This document shows, piece by piece, positions 1,927 to 52,500 of a DNA stretch of 52,996 nt (its first letter is position 1; the number at the start of each line of letters is the position of its first letter). The DNA lies in contig JAJFGQ010000017.1 of NCBI GenBank assembly GCA_021776075.1, positions 1 through 52,996 of the forward strand, read 5' to 3'. The translations under genes and the position numbers were made by a program. The notes beneath the pieces were generated by a model. The model was given only the letters and a program-made list of their open reading frames with translations. It was not told the origin of the DNA and searched no databases. Origin of the DNA: Alphaproteobacteria bacterium. GTDB taxonomy: Bacteria; Pseudomonadota; Alphaproteobacteria; Micavibrionales; Micavibrionaceae.

Positions 1927-1931
1927 GGTTA

Positions 1932-2465: not shown

Positions 2466-2674
2466 TTTTACTCGGTTACAGTTGGTTATAAAAGCCTCAT
2501 GATGAGTCCCGAGCGTAAAACGAAACCTCTTTTTATGCAATATAGAATGAACAGAATAGTGGGACTTGACGGATTGAGGGTTTTGGGTATTTTTGCAAAA
2601 CTGTTTCTGAAAACTAAATTTGACATATAATTTTCTGTATTGTAGAAGTTATCTTTTTACGCGAGGAATAGAAA

Positions 2675-2983
2675 ATGAACTCACAAGGCTTTAGAGGAAC
2701 TAGAAATGCTACGGCTTTGTCAGGTGCAATCGCACGGTTGAATCTCTCTGCGCGCTTCGGCTACGTGGTCGAGGATGGCTCTAACCGTCAATATATTTTT
2801 GCATTGGAATGTGTTCCTGCCGTAAAAAATGGCACTTTGAAAGCGGAAGAGCCGGGCTTTTTTAAACGGATATTTAACGTAGAAAGTCAGACCATGACGG
2901 GAAAGGGTATCTCCTTGAAACCCGGTTCAAAAGTATTTTTCAATACAGATCAAGAAGGCCGGGTTACAAAACTGACTTTGTGA
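2675..2983 (+). CDS. hypothetical small protein (102 aa)
   Basis: ORF with SD GAGGAA 7 nt upstream. It is preceded by an AT-rich region with a TATAAT box at ~2623. No recognisable motif. Confidence 0.5.
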   Translation: MNSQGFRGTRNATALSGAIARLNLSARFGYVVEDGSNRQYIFALECVPAVKNGTLKAEEPGFFKRIFNVESQTMTGKGISLKPGSKVFFNTDQEGRVTKLTL

Positions 2984-2999
2984 TTAGGGGAGATTTGAT

Positions 3000-3620
3000 A
3001 TGACGAAAGAACTTGGTAATGAAAAGTCTTTAAAGATGAATCCGTTAGAAACGCTACGGGATTATGGAGTTTCTTGTTTTTCCGGCTTTTTCAGTGCTGC
3101 CATGATCGTTCCTACGATTGGTTTGGCTGTTTGGTCGGTGGGGGTTGCTATTCCTCAGGCTTATGCTGTTGGCGGTGGTCTTAATGCTTTTGCCGCCAGT
3201 GTTTTTCTTGGCGCGGGTGTTTCTATTGCTGTGGGATGTAGTGCCGTTGCGGTGATGTGGTCTTCTGCTATATCTAAGGTGTTTCCGTTTAAACTTGTCG
3301 CGTGTTTGGCCGGTGCTGCGGCGGGCTGTGCTCTGATGTTAAATCCCATAGTTAATGATATGAATAATAAAAATAACCTTGCTGTTTCTACATCAGAGGC
3401 TACAAAGCAAACCGTGCTGAAGAAGACATCACTGGATACAGAGTCAGGTAAGGTTTTGCAGGCATTTAACCATATGCGGACAAGCTCTGTTGTAATGCCT
3501 ATATCAAAAACATTTAACGATATCGTAATTGGTATTTGTAACCGTTCCCCACGGACTGCAAAGTGTAAATTTTCGGCAAGTGGAGGTGGTTTTATTCCAC
3601 TGGCAAACGAACGAATCTGA
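3000..3620 (+). CDS. hypothetical membrane protein with glycine-zipper-like helices
   Basis: SD GGGGAG upstream. Three or four hydrophobic helices rich in GxxxG/AxxxA (AVGGGLNAFAASVFLGAGVSIAVGCSAV, LVACLAGAAAGCALML). It starts 16 nt after the 102-aa ORF, so likely an operon. The last ~39 codons overlap the convergent gene at 3504..4148. Confidence 0.55.
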   Translation: MTKELGNEKSLKMNPLETLRDYGVSCFSGFFSAAMIVPTIGLAVWSVGVAIPQAYAVGGGLNAFAASVFLGAGVSIAVGCSAVAVMWSSAISKVFPFKLVACLAGAAAGCALMLNPIVNDMNNKNNLAVSTSEATKQTVLKKTSLDTESGKVLQAFNHMRTSSVVMPISKTFNDIVIGICNRSPRTAKCKFSASGGGFIPLANERI

Positions 3621-4148
3621 TGCTTCGCAGTCGGCCTGACAAGCAGCTCTACTTGCAGAATTACCGACTCCGCTGCCAAAGGAGCTACAATTATGGTTTT
3701 TATTATCCTGCCACAAAGCACAAGGGTCTTTAGCAAAAAGAGAGGTCCAGCCCAACCCATCGCATATTTTAAGAAACCCTACAGAATCATATAACAACAC
3801 ACCTTCATTGGTGCTATTGCATGTCTGTCCTGTATCATTAAACTGAAAAGAACCGCTTCCGCCGCCGCCCGCTGTACCGCAGGCCCATTTTGTACCGTCA
3901 AATACCAGTATTTCACCGCTGGCGCAGACCTGATTACCGATACTGCTAAGTTCACCCGTGCGCTTAAAATCGAGGATTGATTTCCAGTTCGCGCCGTCAC
4001 AGACCAGAAAATGACCGCCGGTAGCAATTTCCGGGCCGCCGGATTGCCTGAAAATGCCTGCGGTCGTACAGGTGTCTCCGGGCAAGGTTTCCTGCGCGTG
4101 AACCTCAACCGCAAAAACCAGAAGAAGAAGAAAAATAACTCTACTCAT
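3504..4148 (-). CDS. secreted cysteine-rich repeat protein (14 Cys)
   Basis: SD GGGAG 8 nt upstream. Sec-type signal peptide MSRVIFLLLLVFAVEVHAQE. Three ~30-aa repeats of pattern G-x-T-C-x(n)-G-x(n)-L-x-C-D-G-x-x-W, then a C-terminal Cys-dense tail. Confidence 0.65.
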   Translation of the reverse strand: MSRVIFLLLLVFAVEVHAQETLPGDTCTTAGIFRQSGGPEIATGGHFLVCDGANWKSILDFKRTGELSSIGNQVCASGEILVFDGTKWACGTAGGGGSGSFQFNDTGQTCNSTNEGVLLYDSVGFLKICDGLGWTSLFAKDPCALWQDNKNHNCSSFGSGVGNSASRAACQADCEASDSFVCQWNKTTSTCRKFTLCSPWGTVTNTNYDIVKCF

Positions 4149-4500
4149 GTCTCAAGCTCCCTTTTTCATTACCAAAGAAAGGGCCGCCAAAGAGAAAATC
4201 TCTTGGCAGCCGGGAGTTCAAAACCGTCACATTAGAAACGGCGTGACAGCCTTTAGCTGACGCCTGGACATACGCTGTCACCTCCCGGCCATAAGACCGA
4301 GCGACAGCATCCTCGATGCGCTTTACTAAAATAACGAAAACGCATCAATAACGGTTGATGCCAACCGCTAATGTGAGAGGTTTTGAAGCCCCGAGCCTGC
4401 CCCTATGGACAGACACACGGCCACAATGAACAGAAACAGGGAAAAAGGCAAATGAAAACGAAAATAAGAAATTATGCGGGTAATTCGTTTCTGCATAGGC

Positions 4501-5895
4501 CTATATCAAAAACAACGCCGCCAGCCCCAGAAATGCAAAGAATCCCACGACATCTGTAACGGTTGTCAGGAGAACGGTTGAGGAAACAGCCGGGTCGCTG
4601 CCCATACGGTGCAGGAGGATCGGGATTCCGGCACCGCATAAACCCGCCATGATCAGGTTGATAATCATAGCTGTGCCCAGCACAAGCCCCAGAATCGTAT
4701 TGTCAAACCACAAAGCGGCAATCACGCCCATGATAGCGGCGAAGGCCGCGCCGTTTAACGTACCGACCAATGTTTCTTTTCCGACAACCCGTAGGGCGTT
4801 CACGGTGGAAAGTTCTTTTGTTGCCAGTGCCCGCACCGCTATGGTTAGGGCTTGCGTTCCGGCATTGCCGCCCATGGAGGCCACAATCGGCATCAGGACA
4901 GCCAGCGCGACAAGCTCTTCGATTGTGGCGCCAAACAGTGAAATGACAAGCGACGCCAATATAGCTGTCAGCAAATTAATAAAAAGCCAACGAAAGCGGA
5001 AGCCGGTGGTTGAAAGAACGGCATGGTATAAATCGCCATGATCGACTCCGGCGAGTTTTAAGATGTCTTCCTGTGCTTCTTCGTGAATAACGTCAACGAC
5101 ATCATCAACGGTAATCACGCCGATCAGGCGTTCTTCTTCATCAACAACCGGAGCGGAAGTCAGGTTCTCCCGGCGGAAAATTTGCGCGACTTCTTCCTGA
5201 TCCGTGCCGGCAGGAATCGGGTGAATGTCACCCAGTGTCAGTGTTTCCAATTTATCTGAACGGTTGGCGCGCACCAGACGACTGAGCGGGATTTCACCGG
5301 CAACGTGGTAAGTGGGCGTGATCACGAAAATATCGAAGAATTCTGCGGGTAGTTCATCTGTGGCAGCGCGCAGATAGTCCATCGTCTTGCCGGCTGTCCA
5401 GAATTGTGGAATAGCAACAAATTCCCGCTGCATCAGGCGCCCGGCGCTATCTTCCGGGAAGTTCAGGCCCTCTTCCAGAGTCAGGCGGGTTTTGGCAGAG
5501 AGTTTATGGATGATGTCGTTCTGGAAGTCTGGAGAGAGGTTTAGGATCATATCCAGCGCGTCGTCACTATCCAGATCCATGATAATCCGGGCGACTTGCC
5601 GGGGTGGCATGTTTTCCAGCGTATCCTTACGTAATTCCGGGTTCAGTTCAGAAAAAACGCCGGGATCAAAGGCGGCGCCGTATTCTTTTAAAAGCCGTTG
5701 CCGGTTTTCTTCGCTGAGTTTTCCCAGAAGTTCGGCAGAATCGGCAATGCTGAGATCGGCAATAATATTCGTTATGCCTTCTTCATAGTCATTCTGAAGG
5801 GCGTCTTCTATTTCATGGATGGTATCGTCGCTCAGTCCGAATTGTCCAACAGCTTCGGCAGAAATGTCGTCATTTTCGTTGCGGATGTTCGTCAT
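4501..5895 (-). CDS. mgtE: magnesium transporter MgtE
   Basis: 464 aa with an N-terminal MgtE-N domain, a CBS pair and a C-terminal 5-TM channel domain (GNAGTQA motif region). The start overlaps the maeB stop by 4 nt. Confidence 0.9.
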   Translation of the reverse strand: MTNIRNENDDISAEAVGQFGLSDDTIHEIEDALQNDYEEGITNIIADLSIADSAELLGKLSEENRQRLLKEYGAAFDPGVFSELNPELRKDTLENMPPRQVARIIMDLDSDDALDMILNLSPDFQNDIIHKLSAKTRLTLEEGLNFPEDSAGRLMQREFVAIPQFWTAGKTMDYLRAATDELPAEFFDIFVITPTYHVAGEIPLSRLVRANRSDKLETLTLGDIHPIPAGTDQEEVAQIFRRENLTSAPVVDEEERLIGVITVDDVVDVIHEEAQEDILKLAGVDHGDLYHAVLSTTGFRFRWLFINLLTAILASLVISLFGATIEELVALAVLMPIVASMGGNAGTQALTIAVRALATKELSTVNALRVVGKETLVGTLNGAAFAAIMGVIAALWFDNTILGLVLGTAMIINLIMAGLCGAGIPILLHRMGSDPAVSSTVLLTTVTDVVGFFAFLGLAALFLI

Positions 5896-8227: not shown

Positions 8228-8313
8228 GTTGGTGCGGTCGAGAAGAGTCGAACTTCCACGGGATTACTCCCACAGCGACCTCAACGCTGCGCGTCTACCA
8301 TTCCGCCACGACC
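8228..8313 (-). tRNA. tRNA-Leu (anticodon GAG)
   Basis: The reverse complement folds as a cloverleaf. 7-bp acceptor GCGGTCG/CGACCGC. Anticodon stem CAGCG/CGCTG with loop TTGAGGT. Long variable arm GGGAGTAATCCC. T-loop TTCGACT. Encoded CCA. Confidence 0.8.
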
Positions 8314-8401
8314 GCACTGCCGTGTGGATAGCAAATATAGCATATTTCTGCAAGCAGGAAGAAGCTTGCAATGCAATATCTTCGATACTATTTTTAAGCT
8401 C

Positions 8402-26572: not shown

Positions 26573-27526
26573 CTACTCAAAGAAGTAATGAATAGCGAGC
26601 ACAAGTGCCACAGAGACGGCGAGGCCAAAGATCATTTTCATAAAATCCTTGCCGACCAGCGGGAAGATATAACCGAATTTATATTTTGCCCGGTAAGTGT
26701 GAGCAATCGCGATTTCCCGCCCGGTCAGGACGCCGACAAATACCCAGGTCGTGGACATGGGAATGTCGTTATACTGCTTGAAATAGAGCAGGATGAACGC
26801 ATAAACCAGATCAATGATGGTGGCGGAACGCATGAAACGTGTGCCGCTTTTTTCCAGAACGATTTTCTGGATTTTACCGCCGTGTGAGTAGAATATATAG
26901 CCCAGCCAGCCGCACAGAATGACGATGGCGCCGGCAAGATATTCCAGAGGTAATTGCCGCGGTAGATAGACAGCGATATTCGCCATGTCGTGTGAGAGCC
27001 ACGTGAACCACAGGAATCCCGTAGAGAACCACTGCAGGGTACGCCAATAGATACGATGTTCCTTTTTAACCTTGTTGAATTTTTCATTGATAAAGCGGGC
27101 AATGACCATCCAGAGGGCAAAGGCCACGATGGCAGCAAGGCCGTAACCGATCATGCTTTTAACTAGCATTTTTTCCAGTACAAATGTAGAGGCAAAAACA
27201 GAGAGCACAAGGAATGTCGTGGAAACCGGTATACCGAAGCGCGTTAGCAGGACAAGGACAGCCGGGGCCGCTGCGTGATACCATTGAATTTCCTGATAGG
27301 GGATTTTATTCAGGCGGCCATAGGATATATCACCGTCATTGACCACCCAGCCATAGCCCAGTGTAAAGATAAGCACCACAGAGGCCGCCAGCCAGAGCCA
27401 GTACCATTTGAAAACTTTGATATTTGAAGCGATGAACGTGCCGAGTGTCTGGACTGAGTCGTTGGCGATAACGGCGTAGGCGGCGAGCATAAAGCCAATA
27501 AAGGCGTAGAGTGCGTGAATATCCAT
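26573..27526 (-). CDS. PiT/PHO4-family phosphate-transporter-like membrane protein (short form)
   Basis: 317 aa polytopic protein. The N-terminal [12 protein letters not shown] resembles the PiT GANDVANA motif, and the C-terminal [12 protein letters not shown] resembles the second PiT repeat. Confidence 0.55.
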
Positions 27527-40019: not shown

Positions 40020-42596
40020 TTACTCCAGAGTAAAACGGCGTTTCTTCTCTTTCTTGATGTCGGACTGGTCATTGGCAGGAACAGGTGTTCCTCTGCCCAG
40101 ATCAATCGGGAAGTCATCAACTTTTACGGCTTCTATCCGGCTGGCATCGGCTTTATGGATCAGAGCCTCTTCGTCTTCCGTGATAATGCCTTTGATTATC
40201 GCTTCTTTCATGATGTCTTTCATGTCCCTGGAAATAATTTTTTCCTTTTCGGAGACGTTTTGTTTGCGGGCAAGACGCCGCGCCGCGTTGATTTTGTCTT
40301 CAACAGGTTCGGCGGCCAAAGCATCGTTAAAGGCTCCGGTTATCTCAGCGACATGATCGTTAGCAGCCGTGGGCATGAAGATTCCTTCGGCAAGCCTGTC
40401 CCGCGCATCATTTTTATTCAGGAGGATTTCGGCCACTTTTTTCTCCAGCCTGTCAGAAGGCGGATGGAGGCGTTTGCCTGACATAAAGGGCACGGCAGAC
40501 AGAGGTGAGGTTAGAAGGCTCATGCCTATATTTGCCGCTTTCATTATGGCCCCTGCCACGGGCATCATTAAAGGAAGAGGGATTTTCAGCAAGGGCATAA
40601 CTCCCTTAAATGCTTTACCAAGTTTCAATGTTAGCGTGTTTTTAGCGACTTTCAAAAATTGCGTTTCCTTAATCGCTTTAGGAATATTTGTGAAAGTTTT
40701 TTGTACAGCTTTCCCTACGCTCTTAACGCTGAATTCCGGACGGGGATAGTTTCTGATCAATTCACTCATCGCTGTTTCGGCTTGCGACAAGGCGTGTTGA
40801 CAGGCCCAATGCATCAGAGGCTCATCTTCTTTTTTGCAACCTTGCACCTCGAAGTGCCGCAAAGTAGCGGAGGCCAGATAAAGGTGGCTCATGACATCGC
40901 CTAGTCGTGCCGTAACCCTTTCAGCTGTTTTCATTTTAGCGCCCAGAAGCAGATACGTTGTGTCAGCCATGGTCGCAAGACCGGAACTAAGACGATCAAT
41001 TTGTTGGTAATAGCGTTTACCCGGTCCTTTAACCGGCGTTTTACCAAAATGGCCATCGGTTACACCCATCCAGAGGGTGCGCACGCCATTATTCATGCTC
41101 TGCCGGACATGTTCTGCCATCAAGGTCGTGAATTTCTCTTTGTCTTTGGCTATAGCCTCCTTGGTTTCACCCAGTAAGAAGTTATGAGAGCGCATGGATG
41201 CCTGATTGAAAATAATCATATTTCGGGTCAGAATGTTAGCACCTTCGACGGTAATACCGATGGGGACGCCTTGATACATACCGGCAAGGTAGTTTCTTGG
41301 CCCCAGACTGAGGCCCTTTCCGCCGTGAATATCCATGGCGTCGTTGACGACATCGCGCATAGCCTCGGTCAGGTGATATTTAACGACAGCCGATAAAACA
41401 CTGGGTTTTTTACCCTGATCGACCATTTGTGCTGTAGCTGTACGGGCCGCATCCATCATATAGGTCGTTCCTGCCATACGGGCCAGCGGAGAATGAATAC
41501 CTTCAAAAGCACTTAAAGGCACTTTGAATTGTCGGCGTACACGGCTGTACATGCCCGTGACCCAGCTTGCGAATTTCGCACCGCCCGTGGCCTGTGCGGG
41601 AAGAGAAATAGAGCGCCCGACGGCCAGACATTCCATCAACATACCCCAGCCTTTACCGGCTTTTTCTTCACCACCGATAATATTTTCAATAGGGATCACG
41701 ACATCTTTGCCTTTCACAAGGCCGTTATGAAAGGGATGGCCCAGAGGGTTATGCCGCCGTCCGGTTTCTATGCCGGGCGTGTCATGGGAAACAAGCGCAA
41801 CGGTAATGCCTTCCTTGCCCTTTTTCAGCAGGTCGTCAGGGTCCTTCAACTGGAAAGCGACACCCAGAAGGGTCGCAACAGAGGACAGTGTGATATAGCG
41901 CTTATCTATATTCATACGAATTTTTATTTTTCCGTCTTCATCCTTGAAGACCGTGCCGCTTGATGTCATGCCGCCGGCATCAGAGCCTGCATTTGGTTCG
42001 GTCAGAGCAAAGCAGGGGATTTCACGGCCATTGGCAAGGCGCGGTAAATAATGGTGCTTTTGCTCGTCTGTGCCGTAACGCTCCACAAGTTCAGCCGGGC
42101 CGAGGGAGTTGGGAACCATGGCCGTAACAGCCGCCGTGACGCTACGGCTAGAAAGCTTTTGGACAACAGCCGAGTGAGCGAGGGCAGAAAACCCGAGGCC
42201 CTCATGTTCTTTCGGAATAATCATGCCGAAAAATTTCTGGTCTTTCATAAATTGCCAAACGTCTTCGGGAAGGTCTGCTTCTTTGCTGTTTCTGACTTCC
42301 CAATCGTTAACCATGGCGCATAGTTCTTCAACCGGACCGTCAAGGAACGCCTGTTCTTCGGCGCTCAGTTGCGGAGCAGGGAGTATCTTCTTGTTCAGGA
42401 GGTTGTTCCAATCCGGCTTACCGTTCAGGAGGTCCGCTTCAAACCCGGCGTCGCCTGCTTCTAGTGCTGCGGATTCTGTTTCCGAGATTCTTGTCCTGCT
42501 GACCTGACTATAGATAACATCTCTCAGAAGTCTGACTGGTGTGTATCTGACGACAGCGTCGTAAAAAATACGAGTGAGCTTTTCGTGCGTGGACAT
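40020..42596 (-). CDS. fadE: large acyl-CoA dehydrogenase (FadE-type, with C-terminal DUF1974-like extension)
   Basis: 858 aa. ACAD N-terminal, middle and C-terminal domains plus a ~250-aa C-terminal extension, as in gammaproteobacterial FadE. Confidence 0.88.
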   Translation of the reverse strand: MSTHEKLTRIFYDAVVRYTPVRLLRDVIYSQVSRTRISETESAALEAGDAGFEADLLNGKPDWNNLLNKKILPAPQLSAEEQAFLDGPVEELCAMVNDWEVRNSKEADLPEDVWQFMKDQKFFGMIIPKEHEGLGFSALAHSAVVQKLSSRSVTAAVTAMVPNSLGPAELVERYGTDEQKHHYLPRLANGREIPCFALTEPNAGSDAGGMTSSGTVFKDEDGKIKIRMNIDKRYITLSSVATLLGVAFQLKDPDDLLKKGKEGITVALVSHDTPGIETGRRHNPLGHPFHNGLVKGKDVVIPIENIIGGEEKAGKGWGMLMECLAVGRSISLPAQATGGAKFASWVTGMYSRVRRQFKVPLSAFEGIHSPLARMAGTTYMMDAARTATAQMVDQGKKPSVLSAVVKYHLTEAMRDVVNDAMDIHGGKGLSLGPRNYLAGMYQGVPIGITVEGANILTRNMIIFNQASMRSHNFLLGETKEAIAKDKEKFTTLMAEHVRQSMNNGVRTLWMGVTDGHFGKTPVKGPGKRYYQQIDRLSSGLATMADTTYLLLGAKMKTAERVTARLGDVMSHLYLASATLRHFEVQGCKKEDEPLMHWACQHALSQAETAMSELIRNYPRPEFSVKSVGKAVQKTFTNIPKAIKETQFLKVAKNTLTLKLGKAFKGVMPLLKIPLPLMMPVAGAIMKAANIGMSLLTSPLSAVPFMSGKRLHPPSDRLEKKVAEILLNKNDARDRLAEGIFMPTAANDHVAEITGAFNDALAAEPVEDKINAARRLARKQNVSEKEKIISRDMKDIMKEAIIKGIITEDEEALIHKADASRIEAVKVDDFPIDLGRGTPVPANDQSDIKKEKKRRFTLE

Positions 42597-42714
42597 TTTT
42601 TATCTCCCCTTATGTTTCCCCGATTCGGCACAAATATTTTTAAATGTGGACACCGAGTATTTAAAACGGGGAGGGGTTTGTCAATGCACCATGTAAAAAA
42701 ACGATGATGCATTG

Positions 42715-42742
42715 CCGCGACAGAACGGCGCGTTCGGGTTTT
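42715..42742 (+). terminator. hairpin CGAACG-GCG-CGTTCG followed by GGTTTTTTT (plus-strand orientation)
   Basis: Perfect 6-bp stem with a 3-nt loop and a T7 run. It is preceded by an A7 run. It lies in the fadE/grxD intergenic region where both flanking genes are on the minus strand. Confidence 0.4.
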
Positions 42743-42743
42743 T

Positions 42744-43064
42744 TTATTCGCCGAAAGCCGTTTTTAGCAGAGGGTCAATTTCCCCGTTTTCTTCCATCTT
42801 GTCGAGAATGTCGGTGTCGCCGTAAAACTCGCCATTGATGAAAACTTTGGGGAGAGTTGGCCAGTCCGTCATTTGGCTCAGCACTTCACGTTTTTCCGTG
42901 TTATGCAGAACATCAATGACTTCAAAGGGGCGTTCGTATTTGCTAAAAAACTGGATCGTTTCCATGGTGAATCCGCATTGCGGTTGCTCTTTCGTTCCTT
43001 TGGCGTAGATCAAAATTTTATTGGCTTCTACTTCAGTTTTGATTTCATCTTCGATTGTAGACAT
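42744..43064 (-). CDS. grxD: Grx4-family monothiol glutaredoxin (CGFT active site)
   Basis: 106 aa. KGTKEQPQCGFT motif. Conserved pairing with bolA. Confidence 0.9.
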   Translation of the reverse strand: MSTIEDEIKTEVEANKILIYAKGTKEQPQCGFTMETIQFFSKYERPFEVIDVLHNTEKREVLSQMTDWPTLPKVFINGEFYGDTDILDKMEENGEIDPLLKTAFGE

Positions 43065-43075
43065 TGCAAGATTCC

Positions 43076-43309
43076 TTAAGCTGGTGTTTCTGTTTTAATT
43101 TCCAGTGCATGGATACGGCCATCGGCCATGGCTTCATTCAGGGATTTTTGTACCAGCCTGTGTCGGTTCAGTAAACCCATACCGTCAAAAACATTGGATA
43201 CGACATGAACGGCGAGGTGATCTCCCGTTCCTGTTGTGTCCCTGATGCTGACTTCCGCATCCGGGATTTCTTTTTTGACCAGTTCTATCAGAGCAGCGCT
43301 ATCCATCAT
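43076..43309 (-). CDS. bolA: BolA family protein
   Basis: 77 aa from the ATG at 43309 (MMDSAALIELVKKEIP). BolA helix-turn-helix region VVSNVFDGMGLLNRHRLV. The longer ORF to 43393 would overlap the upstream gene. Confidence 0.8.
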   Translation of the reverse strand: MMDSAALIELVKKEIPDAEVSIRDTTGTGDHLAVHVVSNVFDGMGLLNRHRLVQKSLNEAMADGRIHALEIKTETPA

Positions 43310-43328
43310 TGTCTTTAAAACCCTCTTG

Positions 43329-45218
43329 TTACTTTTTTGTATCGGAAAAACTGGCGGGATTAAATTTGCTGCCAATAATAGCGGCGGCTCCACTCAGACC
43401 AGAACTTTCTCCGCCCATAACAAAAGTAGCGGGCAGTTTCAAACCGGTCAGAAGCTGAGGCTTTTCCTTGATGGCATCTATAATCAGTTCCAGAGCGCGG
43501 AGATTGGCAACTTTGTCCTGACCCAGTACATCGGCCTGTGCTTTCTGTCCGTCAGCGACTTGCGTCAGGTAGGATTTCTCAGCCTCTCCTTCGTTGTTCC
43601 GTCGGATTTTGAACTGTTCGGAAACCTGCACACCGATTTCAGCTTTTACGAGTTCTTTTTGCTGGTCGGCGGTTGCCCGTGACTTTTCGGATAGTATGCG
43701 TTCGTCCTGCGCCAGTTTTTCCTGTCTATAGGCTTTAGAAAGCTGTTGGGCCAGTTGTTCCCGGCGGCGTGATACGAGAAGCTCCGGCGGGATGGATGGT
43801 TCACCGATTTTGACTTCCAGAATAGTGATGCCTGCTTTTTCGCCTTCGCTTTTAATCGCTTTTTCAAAAGCCGTTTCCATGTAGGAACGGAAATCTTGAA
43901 AATCGAGGGCGCGGGCAGCTCTGACGGCAAGAACAGGCTTACCCTGTTCATCCTTTAATATTTTGCCGTTTTCATCGAGCAGGGGAGCCAGATAGGTGCC
44001 GCCACCGATATTGCGAACAATGGAACGGATGGCCGGCGTTACAATACGGTCTTCGACTTCCCGGACGCTGCCAACGGCGGCAACAACAGCAGCCGCATCT
44101 TCCGGGTTTACCTGAACCAGAATACGAAGCTCAACGGGCACATCCCAGCCCTCTACTTTCACAAAAATAGCATGATCGGCATGTTGGGATGGTGAAAATT
44201 CAACGGGTTCGCAAGTCCGTTGTTGGGAAAAGCTGCCATCATCACCGAGCGTCAGGTCAATCCGGCATTTGTCAAAGCCGCCTTTATAAGTCCAGCGTTG
44301 GGCGCGAGTTGGAATTTGTGTGACTTCATAAACATCAGGGTTGAAGAAATAAGCACCCGGTTCAAAGATGTCTTTCCAGACACCCTTGCAGCCGGAGTAA
44401 ACCAGGACAGCTTTTAAGTGACCTTGTTCGACCTGAACGCCGCCTTTCTGACAGGCCGGGTTCCAGCCTTCATCCAGATTGGACTTCACGACACCGACAT
44501 AACCGGTCGGAATTTCCGTGATAATAGTAGGGCGTCCACCCACGGACATGGGGCGTTTACCCCATCTGTCATAGAGATAGCTTTTGCCGCTTTCATCCGT
44601 AATACGGACATTAAATAGGAAGAGGTTTAGACGGTGGATGCCGGGTTTCAGGACGGAGGATTGAAGACCTTTATAGCCGTTAATCCTCTGTGAATCGAGA
44701 AAGGCATCGGCGTCGAATAAAGAGTCTTCGTCGCCGCCCTTTGGAGCGCCAAAGGCCAGCGATGTGCCGGGGAGAGGTGGGGCAATAACGGCATCTTCGG
44801 GCAGAGTGCGCCCATCAAGAGCCAGAACTTCTCCGAAATGGCCGGGTGGGATTTCCACGGCGGGCAGAATAGTAACCTCGCCCCAGATACGGATAAACCA
44901 GTCCAGATGCCAGCCCGGTCCATAAATCTTGGACATCGGGCCGTTTTCTCCCGCTGTCGCTATAATTTGTCCACCGTCCAGATTGGATCCGCCGAATTTT
45001 TTTGCTATATGACCCGTTTCATATTTATCGACATAAAAGAGGCTGGTCGAAAGAATAGACCAGACTAGAAAGAGCCAGCCCACGAGATAGAATGAGGTGG
45101 ATATTACAGGGTTTTTGGCCATGTGTATAAATCTGGAAGTGTCATTATTGCTTTTTCTCATCTTGGCAAAAGCAAATAATATCAAGGCATTAAAGATGAT
45201 TGTTAGGACGACTTCCAT
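43329..45218 (-). CDS. SPFH/band-7 domain membrane protein with large N-terminal extension
   Basis: 629 aa with two N-terminal TM helices. The C-terminal half is SPFH-like (a FNPDVYEV...IDLTLGDDG...ILEVKIGEPSIPPEL-type region, then coiled coil with EQLAQQ/KELVKAE repeats). GGAG SD. Confidence 0.65.
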   Translation of the reverse strand: MEVVLTIIFNALILFAFAKMRKSNNDTSRFIHMAKNPVISTSFYLVGWLFLVWSILSTSLFYVDKYETGHIAKKFGGSNLDGGQIIATAGENGPMSKIYGPGWHLDWFIRIWGEVTILPAVEIPPGHFGEVLALDGRTLPEDAVIAPPLPGTSLAFGAPKGGDEDSLFDADAFLDSQRINGYKGLQSSVLKPGIHRLNLFLFNVRITDESGKSYLYDRWGKRPMSVGGRPTIITEIPTGYVGVVKSNLDEGWNPACQKGGVQVEQGHLKAVLVYSGCKGVWKDIFEPGAYFFNPDVYEVTQIPTRAQRWTYKGGFDKCRIDLTLGDDGSFSQQRTCEPVEFSPSQHADHAIFVKVEGWDVPVELRILVQVNPEDAAAVVAAVGSVREVEDRIVTPAIRSIVRNIGGGTYLAPLLDENGKILKDEQGKPVLAVRAARALDFQDFRSYMETAFEKAIKSEGEKAGITILEVKIGEPSIPPELLVSRRREQLAQQLSKAYRQEKLAQDERILSEKSRATADQQKELVKAEIGVQVSEQFKIRRNNEGEAEKSYLTQVADGQKAQADVLGQDKVANLRALELIIDAIKEKPQLLTGLKLPATFVMGGESSGLSGAAAIIGSKFNPASFSDTKK

Positions 45219-45352
45219 GGCAAAAACTCCGTATGGCTTCTATTGTTTTCATTATAATGTCTGCGCTATTCTATAGTAGGAGACTTGCTTTGGCTAACGG
45301 CTTTTTTGCAGAGGTTTTTCTGTGTTTGATAAAAAAATTATAAAAAATCGGC

Positions 45353-45386
45353 TTGACAGAATATCTTTTCCTTTCTAGGTTACGAA
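45353..45386 (+). promoter_or_regulatory. candidate sigma70 promoter for the ABC transporter operon
   Basis: TTGACA (45353-45358), 17-nt spacer, then TAGGTT. The GTG start at 45418 follows, preceded by GGGGAGG SD. Confidence 0.3.
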
Positions 45387-45417
45387 AATACCATACGGAA
45401 ATCTGGGGAGGTTTACA

Positions 45418-47178
45418 GTGGCAGGTCCGCTAAAGAAGTTGCGTGATATTTTTAGTCTTCAGTCAGCGATTGATGAGGGCTTTAACTATAAGCATAAAGC
45501 GCCAGTAATATCGCCGGAGAGAAAAAAAGAGCTGATGGAGTCTGCTGCTTTGACAACGCCACGGAGTAATTTTCGTGCGGTTGTCGGGGTTTTGGAGCCC
45601 TATATAAAGAAATCCAGTGTAAAGGAAAAGCTTCTGGTGACGACTTTTCTGGCGGGTACTTTATATCTCAATCATTTTTCAGTTGATATGATGGGTGCTT
45701 TTGGTGACTGGATCGGTGGGCTTGTGAACCATGTGGCACATTTGTGGAACGTTGTCGTTGAAAACAGACCAGATATGATTGCGGACATGATCGGGAATTA
45801 TCCTGCGTTACAGGATTCTTTGACGGCTGATCCTATGTTGAATAAGTTACTTTTGGCCTATCCCGATGAAACAGCCGTGTTTCGAGATCCTCAATATCAA
45901 GCGTTATTGCAAGAGTTAGAGACGTTAGATATGGATAGCCCAAGGTTTAAGGCAATTAAAGAGTTTCAAAGTGTTTTGCAGCAGAGGTTGCCTGTAGAGG
46001 AATGGTTTAAGGCTTTTCCCGGGTTACAAGAAGGCGCGGGCTTTAAAGAAAAGTTTTCTACAGGTACGGAAAATATTTTAAACCAGCTTACCGGACTTAA
46101 GGATACTTTGGGTCTCCAACTTCAGAAGTTGCCTGAAATCATAAAAACCTTGCAGACGATGTTGATGACGTCCGGCGGTGACTTTTTGTATAATGTGGGA
46201 AACACTCTGAGCACAGCATTTAATAGTGTGGCTGAAAAAGGGACTTTGTTTAACGCTGACTTAAAGGCAGCATTAAGCAAAATGTGGAACAGCAATGATA
46301 TGGCCACAATTGCTTTGAAATTCACAGGGGCAGCCATTGCGGCGTACAAGATGGCACAGTACGTTGTTTTACGGTGGCGTAGTTGGACAACGGGATATTA
46401 TGACGGCAAATACAAAACCAGCAAAACTTTTGCCCGTATAAAAAATATGTTCAATAACATTGATAACCCGGGACAGCGTATTCAGGAAGATCCCGAAAAA
46501 TTTACAGCAGCGAGTGTTTCATTGCTCACAGGGGTTACAACCGCAATATTTACGCTCCAGAAGTTTTCCGGAAAGCTCTGGAATATGGGGCCTGTGCAGG
46601 GTGTTGATGGCGGGTTTTTCATGATTGGAGCCGCGTATGCCGCAGTGCTTTTGGCTGTGACTGGCGGTGTTGGTTATAAGTTGGCCGAGATTTATCGTAA
46701 TAAACAACGTGTTGAGGCCAATTTAAGGCGTGCGACAGATAATGTGCATAATAATGCCGAACAAATAGCCTTAACGGATAGTGCTGAAATAGAAAAAGAT
46801 ATTGTCCAGAAGCGTGTGACGCCTGTGATGGAAAATGCGTGGAGAGAAGTAGGAACCCAAGTCAAAATGACGATTGTTGATTCCACAGTGGGTAATGTGT
46901 CCATTCCCCTTCCTTATCTTGTCGCTTCGTTTGCTGCCGTGGCCAGCGGAACAGCATCGTTCGGTATGGTTCAATCTTTGAATTATGCTTTTAACCGTGT
47001 GAATAGCTCCCTTAGCTTTATCGTGAACCGCTTTGACCAGATTTCAAACTGGATAGCGACTGGATCCCGTATGTATACGTTTGATAAAGCGATGGATGCT
47101 TCCTTGTATATTGAGGAAGAAAAACGGCAAGCCGGTTTGAATGCTGTGATTCCACAACAAGCACCGAAAATGTCGTAG
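45418..47178 (+). CDS. SbmA/BacA/ABCD-family ABC transporter permease (transmembrane domain only), with expanded N-terminal half
   Basis: GTG start with strong SD. VVLRWRSWTTGYYDG and NPGQRIQEDPEKFTAASVSLL match the SbmA VFRWRTAMNEYY...EGAAQRVQEDTMRF block and the ABCD NPDQ motif. KQRVEANLRR matches the SbmA KNQRVEAAYRKEL. Six to eight hydrophobic helices. A ~190-aa mainly helical segment (aa ~110-300) has no counterpart in 406-aa SbmA. Confidence 0.75.
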   Translation: MAGPLKKLRDIFSLQSAIDEGFNYKHKAPVISPERKKELMESAALTTPRSNFRAVVGVLEPYIKKSSVKEKLLVTTFLAGTLYLNHFSVDMMGAFGDWIGGLVNHVAHLWNVVVENRPDMIADMIGNYPALQDSLTADPMLNKLLLAYPDETAVFRDPQYQALLQELETLDMDSPRFKAIKEFQSVLQQRLPVEEWFKAFPGLQEGAGFKEKFSTGTENILNQLTGLKDTLGLQLQKLPEIIKTLQTMLMTSGGDFLYNVGNTLSTAFNSVAEKGTLFNADLKAALSKMWNSNDMATIALKFTGAAIAAYKMAQYVVLRWRSWTTGYYDGKYKTSKTFARIKNMFNNIDNPGQRIQEDPEKFTAASVSLLTGVTTAIFTLQKFSGKLWNMGPVQGVDGGFFMIGAAYAAVLLAVTGGVGYKLAEIYRNKQRVEANLRRATDNVHNNAEQIALTDSAEIEKDIVQKRVTPVMENAWREVGTQVKMTIVDSTVGNVSIPLPYLVASFAAVASGTASFGMVQSLNYAFNRVNSSLSFIVNRFDQISNWIATGSRMYTFDKAMDASLYIEEEKRQAGLNAVIPQQAPKMS

Positions 47179-47193
47179 GGAGAGGATTGGAGA

Positions 47194-48783
47194 ATGACAG
47201 ACGTAAAATCAGATTTTGACCAGTCTCAAAAACAACAGGAAGAAGTTCCTTTCATCGTTGTGACTAAGCATAAGGACGGTACAGAGGAGATTCATATCCA
47301 TGATTTAGTTGTAAGAGTTCCCGGAGATAATGGCCGCGTGCTTGTACAGGACGTGAATTTAGCTCTAAAGCCGGGTGATAAAGTTGCTTTAATGGGAGAG
47401 TCAGGATCGGGTAAAACGACTGTGGCTAAAGCGATCCTTAATAACTGGGACCATGGCTCCGGGTTAATTGTGATGCCCTCCGGCCTGACAATCGTAAGTA
47501 TGTCGCAGCAGGCCTATTTTCCTGACACGACACTACGCGCGATTATGAATTTGAAACCTGAAGAAAAATGCGTATTTGAGGATAAACAACTAACGGAAGT
47601 TTTACAAAAAGTCGGTTTGGAGCAGCTTGTTCAACATATTCCGGGGCAGCAGGTTAAGATTTTGATGGATGATCTTTTGGAGCAGACTCAGAAAATTATG
47701 GAATCCTATGCCGAACAGGAAATATCGGATGATGATTTCCTCTCGGTCAAAAATGATATTTTATCCCGTGTTGCGCCTTTGGTGAAAGAGCAATTTGAGG
47801 TTGTTCAATTTATACCGCAGGAACAAAAAGATTATTTCAAGGAAAAGCTTTCTGCGCAGTTGACCGGGGCGCTTAAAAAGCCTTTAGCACAGCCCAAAGT
47901 AAAAGAATTAACGAATGCTATTCTTGATGATATCGATATAAAATTGGCGCAGCCTTTATATACTCAGTTAGCAGCAACCCTTCCGGAGATGGCGCACAGA
48001 AAACGAGGAAAAATTATTCCCTACACGCCGGCAAAGGCTAAATTTCTTGCTAATAGTTTTGAAGAAAAACTGCGAAAATATTTGACGTCTTATATGAAGA
48101 ATGAAGATACGGATGATATTTATAGGGATATCAGAATTAATGACAAACAAGCCGATTACATTTGTAAGGCTGTCAGTGATAAATTGAGGGAAGAGATGAA
48201 ACCTTACATCAGTGGGGGAACTCTTACGCAGACTTTTAATGCTGTTACATGGGCCGTTACTCTTCCCGCTGCGTTGTTATGGATAGCTTCAAGTGCGATG
48301 AGAGACCTTATCTTTACCCGGAAGATAACGCCTTCTGAAGTGACGCGGACGACCAGTCTTCCCCCCGTGCTTCTTCGGAGAGCCTCGAATATGGCGAAAG
48401 ACCTTGTCCAGAATACAATGCATTTCATGGAGCGTCAGCTCGTAAAGGGCACGGCATTCACAACACAGCTTTCGGGCGGACAAAAGCAGAGACTGATGAT
48501 TGCTATCGGGCTGCTACATGATGCTGATTTATACGTGCTTGATGAGCCTACGGCAGGACTGGATCCAGCAAGTAAGGAAAATATTTATCGTGAAACGATG
48601 GAGGCTGTTCCAAAAGGTGGGATTGTTCTGTGTATTACTCATGATGAAAGCATCATAAAATATCATACACACCTTGCTGTTCTGGAAGATCAAACGATCA
48701 AAATGAAAAAAATTAATCCAGATGCTTATCCTTCTGTAAAGCAACCTTGCGTAGATCACATATGTCCGAATTGCACGCCCTGA
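47194..48783 (+). CDS. ABCD-type ABC transporter ATP-binding protein with ~260-aa insertion between Q-loop and signature motif
   Basis: Walker A GESGSGKTT (aa 68-76). Q-loop SMSQQ (aa ~104). Signature LSGGQKQR (aa 426-433). Walker B LYVLDEPTAGLD. H-loop CITHD. ABCD-family hallmark SIIKYHTHLAVLEDQ (ABCD1 has SLWKYHTHLLQFDGEG). Q-loop to signature spacing is ~320 aa versus ~60 in ABCD1. The insert is charged and helical, with a 22-aa hydrophobic segment FNAVTWAVTLPAALLWIASSAM (aa 347-369). Confidence 0.8.
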   Translation: MTDVKSDFDQSQKQQEEVPFIVVTKHKDGTEEIHIHDLVVRVPGDNGRVLVQDVNLALKPGDKVALMGESGSGKTTVAKAILNNWDHGSGLIVMPSGLTIVSMSQQAYFPDTTLRAIMNLKPEEKCVFEDKQLTEVLQKVGLEQLVQHIPGQQVKILMDDLLEQTQKIMESYAEQEISDDDFLSVKNDILSRVAPLVKEQFEVVQFIPQEQKDYFKEKLSAQLTGALKKPLAQPKVKELTNAILDDIDIKLAQPLYTQLAATLPEMAHRKRGKIIPYTPAKAKFLANSFEEKLRKYLTSYMKNEDTDDIYRDIRINDKQADYICKAVSDKLREEMKPYISGGTLTQTFNAVTWAVTLPAALLWIASSAMRDLIFTRKITPSEVTRTTSLPPVLLRRASNMAKDLVQNTMHFMERQLVKGTAFTTQLSGGQKQRLMIAIGLLHDADLYVLDEPTAGLDPASKENIYRETMEAVPKGGIVLCITHDESIIKYHTHLAVLEDQTIKMKKINPDAYPSVKQPCVDHICPNCTP

Positions 48784-48863
48784 TTGTTTGGCGTGATCTT
48801 CTATATTGACCATTGTAGCGAGAGCTAGTAACAAGGATGGTTATAAACAGGGAGATATAAATA

Positions 48864-50822
48864 ATGAAAAATGAAATACGGCCAGAGAAGCCGGAAAATT
48901 ACAATGGAAATCAAAAACGAGGAAAAAAGGCAGGTCTTTTCTCTGCTTTTGTTCTGGCTGGTGCGTTGGGTGTAAGCGGATGTCTTCCGGGGGCGCCGGT
49001 GCAGGAAATGCCTTATAACGATCTGGTGGATAAGGCAAAATCAGGCCAGATTTCGACAATCACTGTGCAGGGGAATGATATAACAGGCCGCACGGAAACG
49101 GGTGAGGACTTCCATTCTTATGTTGTGGGGAATGATAATGTCTTTGAGCGTCTGAAAGGCTCGAATGTTCCTATAACGGCGAAACCTGTCGAGGGGCCGA
49201 GCGCTTTGGGGCAGATAGGCGGCAGCCTTGTTTACATGGTTGTGTTTATCGGGCTGTTTGTTTTTATCATGCGCAAGATGCAGAGTGGCGCCGGTGGTGC
49301 CGGGGCCTTTGGCAAATCCAAAGCGAAGCTGCTCACGGAAGATAAGGATAAGAATACTTTTTCCGATGTTGCCGGTATTGATGAAGTCAAAGCAGATTTG
49401 CAGGAAATTGTTGAATTTCTGAAGGAGCCGCAAAAGTTTCAAAAACTGGGCGGAAAAATTCCTAAAGGTGTTTTATTGGTAGGCTCACCCGGTACGGGTA
49501 AAACTCTGACGGCGCGTGCTGTTGCGGGGGAAGCCAATGTGCCTTTCTTTACGATTTCCGGTTCTGATTTCGTGGAAATGTTTGTGGGTGTCGGGGCATC
49601 CCGTGTAAGGGATTTGTTTGAGCAGGCCAAAAAGAATGCGCCTTGTATTATCTTTATTGATGAAATTGACGCCGTGGGCCGTCGTCGTGGTGCCGGTCTC
49701 GGTGGGGGGCATGATGAGCGGGAACAGACACTGAACCAGCTTCTTGTTGAGATGGACGGTTTTGAGGAATCGTCTGGTGTTATTCTGATTGCGGCCACAA
49801 ACCGGCCTGATGTTTTGGATCCGGCTTTGCTGCGTCCCGGTCGTTTTGATCGGCAAATAGTGGTGCCGTTGCCCGATGTTATCGGACGGGAGGCTATTTT
49901 AAAGGTTCATACACGGACGGTTCCTCTGGCGGACGACGTAGACTTTAAAGTTATTGCCCGCGGTACACCCGGATATTCAGGTGCGGATATGGCCAATCTG
50001 GTTAATGAAGCAGCTCTTCTGGCTTCGCGGCGTAATAAAAAACGGGTTGATAAGGACGATTTTGAAGGGGCCAGGGACAAGATTTTGTTGGGTGCCGAGC
50101 GGCCTTCCATGGTGATGACGAAAGAGGAAAAAAAGGTAACGGCCTATCATGAGGCCGGGCATGCTCTGGTTGGTTTGAAAATGCCGGGCAACGACCCGCT
50201 CCATAAAGTTACGATTATTCCACGGGGCCGGGCTTTGGGGGTCACAATGAACCTGCCGGAACGCGATCGTTACAGTATGGCCTTTTCTGAGCTGAAAGCG
50301 CGTCTTGCCATGATGTATGGTGGACGGATAGCGGAAGAAATACTTTTGGGACCGGAACATGTGACGACAGGGGCGTCTAACGATATTGAACAGGCTACGA
50401 ATATGGCCCGGAAAATGGTAACCGAATGGGGCATGTCTGATAAACTGGGCTTACTACGTTATGGCGCGGATCAGGAACAGGTCTTTCTCGGCATGTCGAT
50501 GGGGCAATCTCAAAACCTGTCAGAGGAAATGGCCAAACTTGTGGATACGGAGATCAGACGGTTTTCAGATGAAGCTCTTGCGCAGGCCCGAAAAATTCTG
50601 ACAGAAAACAAGGAGCAGTTGGAAACGATAGCAAACGCTTTGCTGGAGTATGAAACGCTCTCCGGTCAGGAAGTCCGGGACCTTCTGGAAGGTAAGCCGG
50701 TTTCACGGCCTGTTGCTCCCCCTGTTGAGGAGAAGAAACCGGAAGAAGCTGTTGTTCTTCCTCCACCGGAGGAAAGGTCGGCACCGCCGCCTTCGCCCCG
50801 TCCGCCGCAATTGGGACCGTAA
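48864..50822 (+). CDS. ftsH: ATP-dependent zinc metalloprotease FtsH
   Basis: 652 aa. AAA+ Walker [12 protein letters not shown]. Zinc site HEAGHA. Pro-rich C-terminal tail. Confidence 0.93.
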
Positions 50823-50892
50823 CCCTAATTATTTGTGAGCATCTGTAGAATCGCATAGACTTCCCTCTCATGGAGAGAAGGGGACCGGGTAC

Positions 50893-52500
50893 ATGACTCA
50901 AATTAACAGCACTGTCAAAGCAGAAGATAAGGCCTTCAAAGCCAACCGGCTTCATATGGAAGGGCTTGTCGCTGACCTGAAGGATAAACTCACGACCATT
51001 GAGATGGGCGGCGGAGAGAAGGCACGGGCGCGTCATACAGGGCGCGGTAAGCTTTTGCCGCGTGAGCGGATTAACCGTTTGCTTGATCCCGGTTCACCGT
51101 TTTTAGAACTTTCAGCATTGGCTGCGCATGATGTGTACAGCGATAACGTGCCTGCTGCCGGTATTATTACGGGTGTTGGCCGCGTATCGGGGCAGGAATG
51201 CGTAATCGTCTGCAATGATGCGACGGTGAAGGGCGGTACCTATTATCCGTTAACCGTGAAAAAGCATTTACGGGCGCAGGAAATTGCCGAACAGAATAAC
51301 CTCCCTTGTGTTTATCTGGTGGATAGTGGTGGCGCAAATCTTCCTAATCAGGATGAAGTTTTTCCCGACCGGGATCATTTCGGCCGTATCTTTTATAATC
51401 AGGCGAATATGTCCGCAAAAGCTATTCCGCAGATTGCTGTTGTGATGGGGTCTTGTACGGCGGGCGGTGCTTACGTTCCCGCGATGAGCGATGAAAGCAT
51501 TATTGTGAAAGAACAAGGCACGATTTTTCTTGCCGGACCGCCTTTGGTGAAGGCGGCAACGGGTGAAGAAGTGAGCGCCGAGGATCTTGGCGGTGGGGAT
51601 GTTCATACGCGGGTTTCCGGTGTGGCGGATCATTTGGCCGATAATGACGACCATGCGCTGGAACTGGCGCGGAAATCTGTTTCCCATTTAAACCGCCGTA
51701 AGATGGGAGCCTTGAATTTTCAGGAACCGAAAGAGCCTTTGTACGATCCTGCAGAAATTTACGGGATTATTCCACCTGACCTGAAGACTCAGTATGATGT
51801 GCGCGAGGTGATTGCGCGCCTTGTTGACGGCAGTGAATTCGACGAATTCAAGGCGCGTTACGGCACGACTCTTGTGACAGGTTTTGCCCATATTATGGGG
51901 ATGCCGGTCGGGATTGTGGCCAATAACGGTGTGTTGTTTTCCGAGAGCGCGCTTAAGGGGACGCATTTTATCGAGCTGTGTAATCAGCGCGGTATTCCGC
52001 TTGTATTTTTGCAGAATATTACGGGTTTCATGGTGGGCAAAAAATATGAAAGCGGCGGCATTGCTAAAGACGGGGCGAAGATGGTAACGGCTGTTTCCTG
52101 TGCCAAGGTCCCGAAATTTACGGTGATTATCGGTGGCTCGTTCGGGGCCGGGAATTACGGCATGTGCGGACGGGCCTTTAATCCGCGCTTTCTGTGGATG
52201 TGGCCGAATGCCCGGATTTCCGTGATGGGCGGGGAGCAGGCCGCCGGCGTTCTGGCAACTGTGACACGCGCGAAAATGGAACGTGACGGTCAAAAATGGT
52301 CGGCAAAAGAAGAGGCCGCTTTTAAAGCGCCTATTCAGGAAACTTACGAGAAAGAGGGGCATCCGTATTATGCTTCGGCGCGCCTGTGGGATGATGGCGT
52401 GATAGACCCGGTGGATACGCGGAAAATACTGGGGCTGGCCATGTCGGCTTCGCTCAATGCCCCGATTGAGGACACGACTTACGGCGTGTTCAGGATGTGA
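50893..52500 (+). CDS. acyl-CoA carboxylase carboxyltransferase beta subunit (methylcrotonyl-CoA carboxylase beta-like)
   Basis: 535 aa. Two carboxyltransferase subdomains. Length and N-terminal region ([24 protein letters not shown]) are typical of MccB/PccB. Confidence 0.88.

Follow-up and report, generated by a model that had tools for sequence, protein, structure and literature searches.

A split ABC transporter of the Rv1819c lineage with accessory domains in both subunits in Micavibrio-like bacteria

A permease and an ATPase of one transporter

A 52,996-nucleotide (nt) stretch of DNA from an alphaproteobacterium of the Micavibrionaceae (assembly GCA_021776075.1, contig JAJFGQ010000017.1, positions 1–52,996; hereafter the window) contains two adjacent forward-strand genes, a permease gene that starts with GTG and an ATPase gene that starts with ATG, separated by a 15-nt gap (47179–47193, GGAGAGGATTGGAGA). 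The coordinates of their features are listed in Table 1. A first-pass annotation, made from the sequence alone, had read the two open reading frames (ORFs) as the permease and ATPase halves of a BacA/ABCD-type importer, fused in Rv1819c and BclA but split here, with extra residues in both halves. The positions, the spacing and the division into halves were borne out by the ORF list, by Pfam and by alignment with Rv1819c; the BacA/Rv1819c/ABCD lineage was supported by Pfam, Rv1819c and fold matches, and the fused state of Rv1819c and BclA by the Rv1819c comparison and by published work (PMC12003926). We conclude with high confidence that the pair encodes the permease and the ATPase of one type IV ATP-binding cassette (ABC) transporter of the ABCD / BclA / mycobacterial BacA (Rv1819c) lineage, presumably assembled, as in Rv1819c, from two permease and two ATPase subunits.

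The permease matched two Pfam models, both confined to its C-terminal half (amino acids (aa) ~276–558): ABC_membrane_2 (PF06472) with 101.2 bits (cut-off 24.4) at aa 276–505, and SbmA_BacA (PF05992) with 55 bits (cut-off 24) at aa 294–558. Both models were matched by 18/18 permease homologues. The best solved relative by sequence was Rv1819c (PDB 6tqe; E 4.7e-18, residues 98–402 aligned), followed by plant ABCD1, ABCD4, ABCD1 and SbmA. When a fused member of the clade (P0164) was compared, the match to Rv1819c reached E 3e-60 and covered both the transmembrane domain (TMD) and the nucleotide-binding domain (NBD), and the plant ABCD1 acyl-CoA transporter was the second-best solved relative of this fused form. 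The core motifs VVLRWR and NPGQRIQED, which the annotation had named, are present in the permease and align residue by residue with Rv1819c.

In the ATPase, Walker A (GESGSGKT, aa 68), Q105, the LSGGQ signature (aa 426), Walker B (LYVLDE) with its catalytic Glu, the D-loop and the ITHD H-loop are retained. All catalytic motifs were found in the window protein and in 13/14 family members, the exception (P0033) being a truncated protein. By its motifs the ATPase is thus catalytically intact.

The permease was modelled with AlphaFold2 as six transmembrane (TM) helices in the type IV ('exporter') fold. Topology was taken from homology, model and charge distribution, as Kyte-Doolittle hydropathy alone fails to resolve the long amphipathic helices of this fold. 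The N-terminal 67 residues were modelled as short soluble helices; aa 1–70 contain 13 Lys or Arg residues, and T47, P48, R49, S50 and R53 are near-invariant among homologues, the resulting ETPRS..R motif also being present in the fused relative P0164 and in a split permease with a short TM1–TM2 loop (locus L015). The helix at aa 68–127 is the sole hydrophobic segment N-terminal of the permease insertion. The helices that follow the insertion span aa 295–333, 359–388, 399–445, 456–493 and 515–537 plus 539–576, with the TM6 break at aa 538. Neither the model nor hydropathy gave TM0, TM0a or TM0b, as a single hydrophobic helix precedes TM2. The annotation had expected the 8-TM SbmA fold, which the six-helix model lacking TM0a/TM0b does not show; since eight TM helices are specific to proton-driven SbmA/BacA and not to the ABC members of the lineage (PMC8442886), that test was mis-specified.

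Two narrower assignments were considered and rejected. Membership of SbmA/BacA proper was ruled out by the six TM helices, the adjacent NBD gene and the SbmA equivalog model NF008306, which scored 46 bits against a cut-off of 492; the alignment with SbmA spans SbmA residues 161–397 only. Membership of the ABCD subfamily was ruled out by TIGR00954, which lay far below its cut-off of 918.9 (permease 51.7 bits, ATPase 63.9 bits). No NCBIfam equivalog or subfamily model came near its cut-off for the pair.

A helical insertion in the nucleotide-binding domain

The ABC_tran match in the ATPase is broken into two parts, aa 52–152 and ~400–490. From HIPGQQ (aa 148), with which the helical subdomain ends, to LSGGQ there are 272 residues, compared with 230–294 in relatives and ~22 in Rv1819c. 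The insertion that had been described in the ATPase was thereby borne out, by the split match, by the spacing and by its conservation across the family. In the alignment of P0164 with Rv1819c, ~240 residues replace 22 directly before the signature motif, which is the position of the X-loop; this position faces the coupling helices.

The insertion carries a net charge of about +3 and the conserved motifs QFEVVQ, NEDTDD..R.IR.N..Q and FNAV.WP. Modelled alone, it formed nine to ten helices with a predicted local distance difference test (pLDDT) score of 81.6 and a predicted template modelling (pTM) score of 0.73. Among 1.84 billion representative proteins, searched exhaustively with HMMER, only 42 contained it, always inside an NBD, and no relative was found among Pfam models or PDB sequences. 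It is a confidently folded all-helical domain without a detectable relative in sequence or fold.

Within this domain, the window protein contains a 36-residue segment of its own that no DNA repeat accounts for. With its flank it is the sole hydrophobic stretch of the protein (hydropathy peak at aa 347–369) and might be a membrane-touching helix; the loop that follows it has low pLDDT.

A helical insertion in the TM1–TM2 loop of the permease

The permease insertion consists of ~185 residues after the first TM helix, where the annotation had counted about 190 extra residues at aa ~110–300, and is kept across the family (mean column identity 45% in the family alignment). Its mean net charge is about −10. 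We place it in the periplasm, because one TM helix precedes it, the TM2 that follows is homologous to TM2 of Rv1819c, which runs from periplasm to cytoplasm, the N-terminus is rich in Lys and Arg, and the insertion is acidic. It was modelled as an all-helical bundle atop the 60-residue TM1 helix, mostly with pLDDT 85–90, above that of the membrane core, and with a dip to 63–71 at aa ~201–220. Because both insertions are conserved in every family member, they are neither chance nor assembly artefacts.

In the consensus of the insert, short 'NP/DP/YP-x-L-x3-L' helix repeats follow one another. PF23195 (ubiquilin-1-like, STI1-type) matched 17/18 relatives at E<=1 at the insert-equivalent position and exceeded its gathering score (27 bits) in three of them (P0007, 31.8; P0013, 28.5; P0003, 27.6), with weaker matches to STI1-HOP_DP (PF17830) and to XPC-binding models. 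Reversed or shuffled inserts gave 0/10 PF23195 matches, so that the STI1-type signal is not compositional. On these sequence grounds the insertion appears to be built from STI1/ubiquilin-like 'NP-x-L' helix repeats and is called STI1-like here. The helices of an STI1 domain are arranged as a hand, and TM or amphipathic helices bind in its hydrophobic groove (PMC13083928). Literature searches yielded no report that connects such domains with the bacterial periplasm.

Table 1. Features of the gene pair and its upstream region (window coordinates)
Feature	Coordinates	Strand	Basis or remark
Promoter-like TTGACA-N17-TAGGTT	45353..45381	+	in 199-nt divergent intergenic region; weak evidence
Shine-Dalgarno sequence GGGGAGG	45405..45411	+	6 nt 5′ of permease GTG
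Permease gene, TMD of type IV ABC transporter, PF06472/PF05992 lineage	45418..47178	+	586 aa
Cytoplasmic N-terminal region, aa 1–67, near-invariant ETPRS..R motif	45418..45618	+	alignment
TM1, single 60-residue helix, aa 68–127, extending far past the membrane	45619..45798	+	AlphaFold2, pLDDT 84–90
Acidic all-helical insert, predicted periplasmic, aa ~108–292	45739..46293	+	model; conserved in 18/18 homologues; STI1/ubiquilin-like in relatives
TM2–TM6 core, aa 295–576, with LRWR, NPGQRIQED (intracellular loop 1) and broken TM6	46300..47145	+	model, Rv1819c alignment
Shine-Dalgarno sequence GGAGAGG	47179..47185	+	in 15-nt gap, 8 nt 5′ of ATPase ATG
ATPase gene, ABC NBD with internal insertion	47194..48783	+	529 aa
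Basic all-helical NBD insertion domain, aa ~154–410	47653..48423	+	between HIPGQQ and X-loop/signature motif
Window-specific 36-residue segment, aa 359–394, partly hydrophobic, AALLWIASSAMRDLIFTRKITPSEVTRTTSLPPVLL	48268..48375	+	absent from 13 relatives

Distribution and order of events

Full-length permease homologues amounted to 18 clusters among 5.8 billion. A GTDB scan placed the pair in Micavibrio aeruginosavorus (complete genome), in an uncultured Micavibrio and in metagenome-assembled genomes (MAGs) of Alphaproteobacteria or Rhodospirillales. The clade is very small and confined to Micavibrio-like predatory bacteria. NCBI taxonomy puts Micavibrio in Bdellovibrionota/Pseudobdellovibrionaceae, and the MAG records of the closest homologues are titled Alphaproteobacteria or Rhodospirillales. 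The annotation had allowed that the pair might turn out to be a common, annotated exporter family; the family is instead rare and its annotation only generic. It had also cast the pair as a candidate for host interaction, a framing that was premature, as the carriers prey on bacteria and are not host-associated symbionts or pathogens (PMC3189940).

The permease gene is followed by the adjacent ATPase gene in every locus that reaches far enough downstream, and the two genes were found split in at least 10 independent loci, one of them in the complete M. aeruginosavorus genome. Two relatives, P0164 and P0167 (~875 aa), are fused TMD-NBD proteins that have the NBD insertion and a short TM1–TM2 loop. 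L015 is split, with a 456-aa permease whose TM1–TM2 loop is also short; in the fused and L015-type members this loop has ~40 residues and TM0 is lacking. L016 encodes a 667-aa permease with the helix repeats of the insertion.

Three features are therefore nested: the basic all-helical NBD insertion of ~230–290 residues occurs in every member, the TMD and NBD lie on separate adjacent genes in most members, and the ~185-residue periplasmic domain occurs in a Micavibrio-like subset only, the window included. Given this nesting, and given that the same genes flank fused and split forms, we read the NBD insertion as the first event and gene fission as the second, with the periplasmic domain acquired last. 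The claim that both subunits are atypical stands; the periplasmic STI1-like placement, and the precedence of the NBD insertion over the split and the periplasmic domain, were not part of it. Literature searches yielded no account of the two accessory domains, of the fused/split series or of any tie to Micavibrio nutrition, and on the gene pair in Micavibrio they yielded nothing beyond generic annotation. The genes with their generic annotation were already public; both accessory domains and the nested fused/split series appear to be newly described here.

Gene neighbourhood and expression signals

The neighbourhood of the pair (window 40020–52500) was compared with loci L001, L002, L004, L006, L008, L010, L011, L013 and L016. 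Fused and split forms share their flanks: indolepyruvate:ferredoxin oxidoreductase (IOR; ~1150 aa), a PaaI/EntH/YdiI-type hotdog thioesterase and a class I S-adenosylmethionine (SAM) methyltransferase lie beside the transporter in nearly all other genomes. These flanking genes are 66–77% identical across loci and the transporter 43–54%. At L001 they lie 8 kb from the transporter. In the window the pair is flanked by an SPFH gene and ftsH, and no IOR, thioesterase or methyltransferase neighbour was found within 53 kb; because these usual neighbours are absent, the window locus is considered rearranged. At L015 (positions 1279–5390) the methyltransferase, the hotdog thioesterase, the 456-aa permease and an ATPase of 452 aa are encoded in the same direction with gaps of 9–58 nt, an arrangement that looks like an operon. 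This locus, split and without the periplasmic domain, provides the strongest hint of a functional link to the methyltransferase and the thioesterase.

The permease start agrees with the N-termini of 17 homologues in an alignment of 18 sequences. A strong Shine-Dalgarno sequence upstream of the pair had been noted, and GGGGAGG is indeed found there; the second one, in the gap, is consistent with coupled translation of permease and ATPase. The promoter that had been offered as a sign of independent expression is present as a string of letters, with a perfect −35 element, but the argument built on it is weak: the −10 element agrees at 3/6 positions only (T1, A2, T6) and for that reason fails the criterion of a consensus promoter scan of the region, which did not list the site and returned 7 promoter-like sites where 7.5 were expected, that is, chance level; moreover, no forward-strand terminator was found between the ATPase gene and ftsH.

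Several other features of the window were recorded. A protein of ~320 aa (window 26585–27526, reverse strand; L001 8803–9768; also L004, L008 and L016) is 77–81% identical among these loci and matched no model of Pfam or NCBIfam; in several genomes its gene immediately precedes that of the permease, but in the window it is 18 kb away. A 105-aa BolA ORF that starts with GTG (43076–43393, reverse strand) overlaps the SPFH/Band 7 ORF (43329–45218, reverse strand, 629 aa) at the 3′ end of the latter; as the Pfam match to BolA starts at aa 54, translation of BolA probably begins at an internal ATG. Ahead of its Band 7 domain, the SPFH protein has an N-terminal extension of ~270 residues. A single tRNA gene (8233–8315, reverse strand) was the only Rfam match in the window at the gathering threshold.

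Proposed function and alternatives

According to Wang et al. (2011, PMC3189940), the biosynthesis of seven amino acids is missing in M. aeruginosavorus, whose genome reportedly contains no transporter known to carry amino acids or peptides. The orthologues of the pair in this species, GMV_893 and GMV_895, had GEI values of 0 in attack phase and of 1.1 and 1.0, respectively, in attachment phase. Here we infer the substrate and the direction of the transporter. Our working model, held tentatively and at rather less than even confidence, is uptake of prey-derived peptides or similar bulky solutes, with the periplasmic STI1-like domains biasing direction and the NBD insertion modulating coupling or docking. 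By analogy with Rv1819c, ATP would drive the passage of bulky solutes, hydrophilic or amphipathic, through a large cavity in the core. The dimer would carry its two periplasmic domains above the periplasmic mouth, at the place taken by the TM0 cap in Rv1819c and by the extracellular domain in BmrD; there they could serve as an integral receptor or gate and capture peptides from prey, probably amphipathic or cationic ones. Such capture would bias an intrinsically bidirectional BacA-type mechanism toward uptake in the feeding phase. The NBD insertion, at the NBD–TMD interface, would probably regulate or stabilise coupling, or dock to the membrane or to a partner.

Several observations weigh against uptake of prey peptides. 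The label 'importer' is not established: no sequence feature tells importers from exporters in the type IV fold, and transport by the closest relative that has been characterised runs both inward and outward (PMC10960864). Expression restricted to attachment phase is common to most Micavibrio genes (80% vs 33% transcribed), and the level for the pair is low. The IOR, PaaI-type thioesterase and SAM methyltransferase neighbours favour aryl-/acyl-CoA metabolism over peptides. As to the STI1 likeness, the insert-only profile had RAD23 XPC-binding domains as its top PDB matches, each non-significant (E 0.1–0.6); the insert of the window protein itself, which has extra residues, matched neither PF23195 nor any other STI1-type Pfam model; and a Met content of 3.3% gives no evident Met-rich groove.

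The IOR, thioesterase and methyltransferase neighbours are the starting point of the main alternative, which we regard as possible but doubtful: the pair would export or extract a metabolite, hydrophobic, aromatic or acyl in nature, that these enzymes make. IOR would yield an arylacetyl- or acyl-CoA, from which the hotdog thioesterase would free the acid for modification by the SAM methyltransferase. Export would fall to the ABCD-like transporter, with the hydrophobic groove of the periplasmic domain shielding the product in the periplasm. The three enzymes flank fused and split transporters in most loci, and the L015 cluster, with its closely spaced co-directional genes, points the same way. 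So do the ABCD-type TMD model PF06472, which outscores SbmA_BacA, the second rank of the plant ABCD1 acyl-CoA transporter among solved relatives of the fused form, and the binding of hydrophobic segments by STI1-type domains (PMC13083928). Yet the window pair lacks such neighbours in 53 kb and those of L001 are 8 kb off; the flanks are more conserved than the transporter, as expected for gene order inherited within a lineage; TIGR00954 reached 52 bits against 919; and the polar cavity of Rv1819c suits hydrophilic cargo (PMC10960864).

Less probable still is an unspecialised generalist of the BacA/Rv1819c type, that is, ATP-driven bidirectional diffusion of cobalamin and other hydrophilic compounds, for which the insertions would be structural embellishments: the periplasmic one would replace the TM0 cap and the NBD one would help the separate ATPase to dock, neither adding specificity. 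Rv1819c is the closest solved relative and has a TM0 periplasmic cap (PMC8442886) where the permease has no TM0, and bidirectional generalist behaviour is documented for mycobacterial BacA (PMC10960864). However, fused members also have the NBD insertion, which hence did not arise to dock a separate ATPase, and a simple cap would not require a domain of 185 residues, since fused and L015-type members manage with a ~40-residue loop and no TM0. A conserved and confidently folded insert with a recognisable ligand-binding-type repeat also argues against mere embellishment.

Defensive import, in which antimicrobial peptides and bacteriocins of prey or competitors would be taken up for degradation and the predator membrane protected during attachment, seems improbable to us. 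Protective import of antimicrobial peptides has a precedent in BacA and BclA (PMC12003926, PMC8442886), an acidic periplasmic domain with a net charge of about −10 and an STI1-like signature for binding amphipathic helices would capture cationic amphipathic peptides, and the orthologues are expressed only when attached to prey. Against this, the expression is low, nothing indicates that the prey of Micavibrio use peptides of this kind, and defensive import differs from nutritional peptide uptake in purpose alone, which the present data cannot separate. Finally, although fused relatives with the same flanking genes exist, a split produced by a frameshift, by assembly or by decay to a pseudogene has next to no probability and was ruled out by the at least 10 independent split loci with a short gap and their own Shine-Dalgarno sequence, by full-length ORFs and by intact motifs, and both genes are transcribed in M. 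aeruginosavorus.

Nutritional uptake of prey-derived peptides remains the reading we prefer. A bolder form of it, which we consider unlikely as it stands, is that a generalist, bidirectional BacA-type transporter was made directional and selective by an STI1-like domain, grafted onto its periplasmic mouth to capture peptides or helices, and is the missing nutrient gate of Micavibrio-like epibiotic predators, the X-loop domain of the NBD being a new regulatory or coupling module. If true, this would be the first STI1-type client-binding domain working in the bacterial periplasm, and prey-peptide import would explain the feeding of a predator without a known amino-acid or peptide transporter. 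The pair is a candidate answer to a question open since 2011, that of how Micavibrio takes up nutrients from prey. An STI1-like module in a bacterial periplasmic loop would widen the known range of such modules beyond eukaryotic chaperone systems, the only setting given for them in the literature consulted, and the ~270-residue NBD insertion occupies the most sensitive coupling interface of an ABC transporter. The clade also offers natural intermediates (fused without, split without and split with the periplasmic domain) for studying direction and specificity in the type IV fold.

Comparison with known systems

Members of the lineage import peptides, bleomycin and cobalamin (PMC8442886, PMC12003926, PMC10960864), and import of antimicrobial peptides through BacA and BclA protects rhizobia and pathogens (PMC12003926, PMC8442886). 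The mycobacterial BacA is described as a bidirectional generalist working by 'ATP-driven diffusion' that might evolve into specialised transporters, and Rv1819c has a polar cavity for hydrophilic cargo (PMC10960864); an extra TM0 helix forms its periplasmic cap (PMC8442886). The window pair resembles Rv1819c in its PF06472/PF05992 TMD, in LRWR and NPxQRIQxD and in the broken TM6, and by analogy may share ATP-driven transport and a periplasmic capping structure. It differs in that Rv1819c is a single polypeptide with a TM0 cap and ~22 residues at the NBD position, whereas the pair is split, lacks TM0 and belongs to a family with 230–290 residues there; unlike Rv1819c, its clade is restricted to predatory bacteria.

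BclA (Bradyrhizobium and others) is of the same lineage, needs both TMD and ATPase for transport and imports nodule-specific cysteine-rich (NCR) and other antimicrobial peptides (PMC12003926). BclA is a fused protein for which neither a periplasmic nor an NBD insertion has been described, a distinction drawn from its description and not from its sequence. In the SbmA/BacA (SLiPT) group of peptide importers, SbmA has eight TM helices, made up of TM0a and TM0b plus the six-helix core; it lacks both NBD and coupling helices and uses the proton gradient as its driving force (PMC8442886).

Among ABCD1–4 and plant ABCD1, the likeness lies in PF06472 as the best-scoring Pfam model and in ABCD4 and ABCD1 as top fold and sequence matches. 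These proteins are peroxisomal acyl-CoA and lysosomal cobalamin transporters. They are eukaryotic, fused half or full transporters and have neither insertion.

For the periplasmic domain, a precedent of position is BmrCD of B. subtilis, in which BmrD has, between TM1 and TM2, a domain that covers the extracellular gate and moves with ATP (10.1101/2021.03.13.435271). This domain consists mostly of beta-strands, belongs to an ABCB-type multidrug exporter and has no sequence relation to the permease insert. The likeness to the STI1/ubiquilin/RAD23 XPC-binding group rests on the 'NP-x-L...' helix-turn repeats, on PF23195 in 17/18 relatives, on RAD23 domains as top PDB matches and on the all-helical insert. 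The characterised STI1 domains treated in the literature consulted are eukaryotic cytosolic proteostasis factors, whereas the domain here is predicted to be periplasmic, lies in a transporter loop, is acidic and is not clearly Met-rich; and the window copy has lost the STI1 motif.

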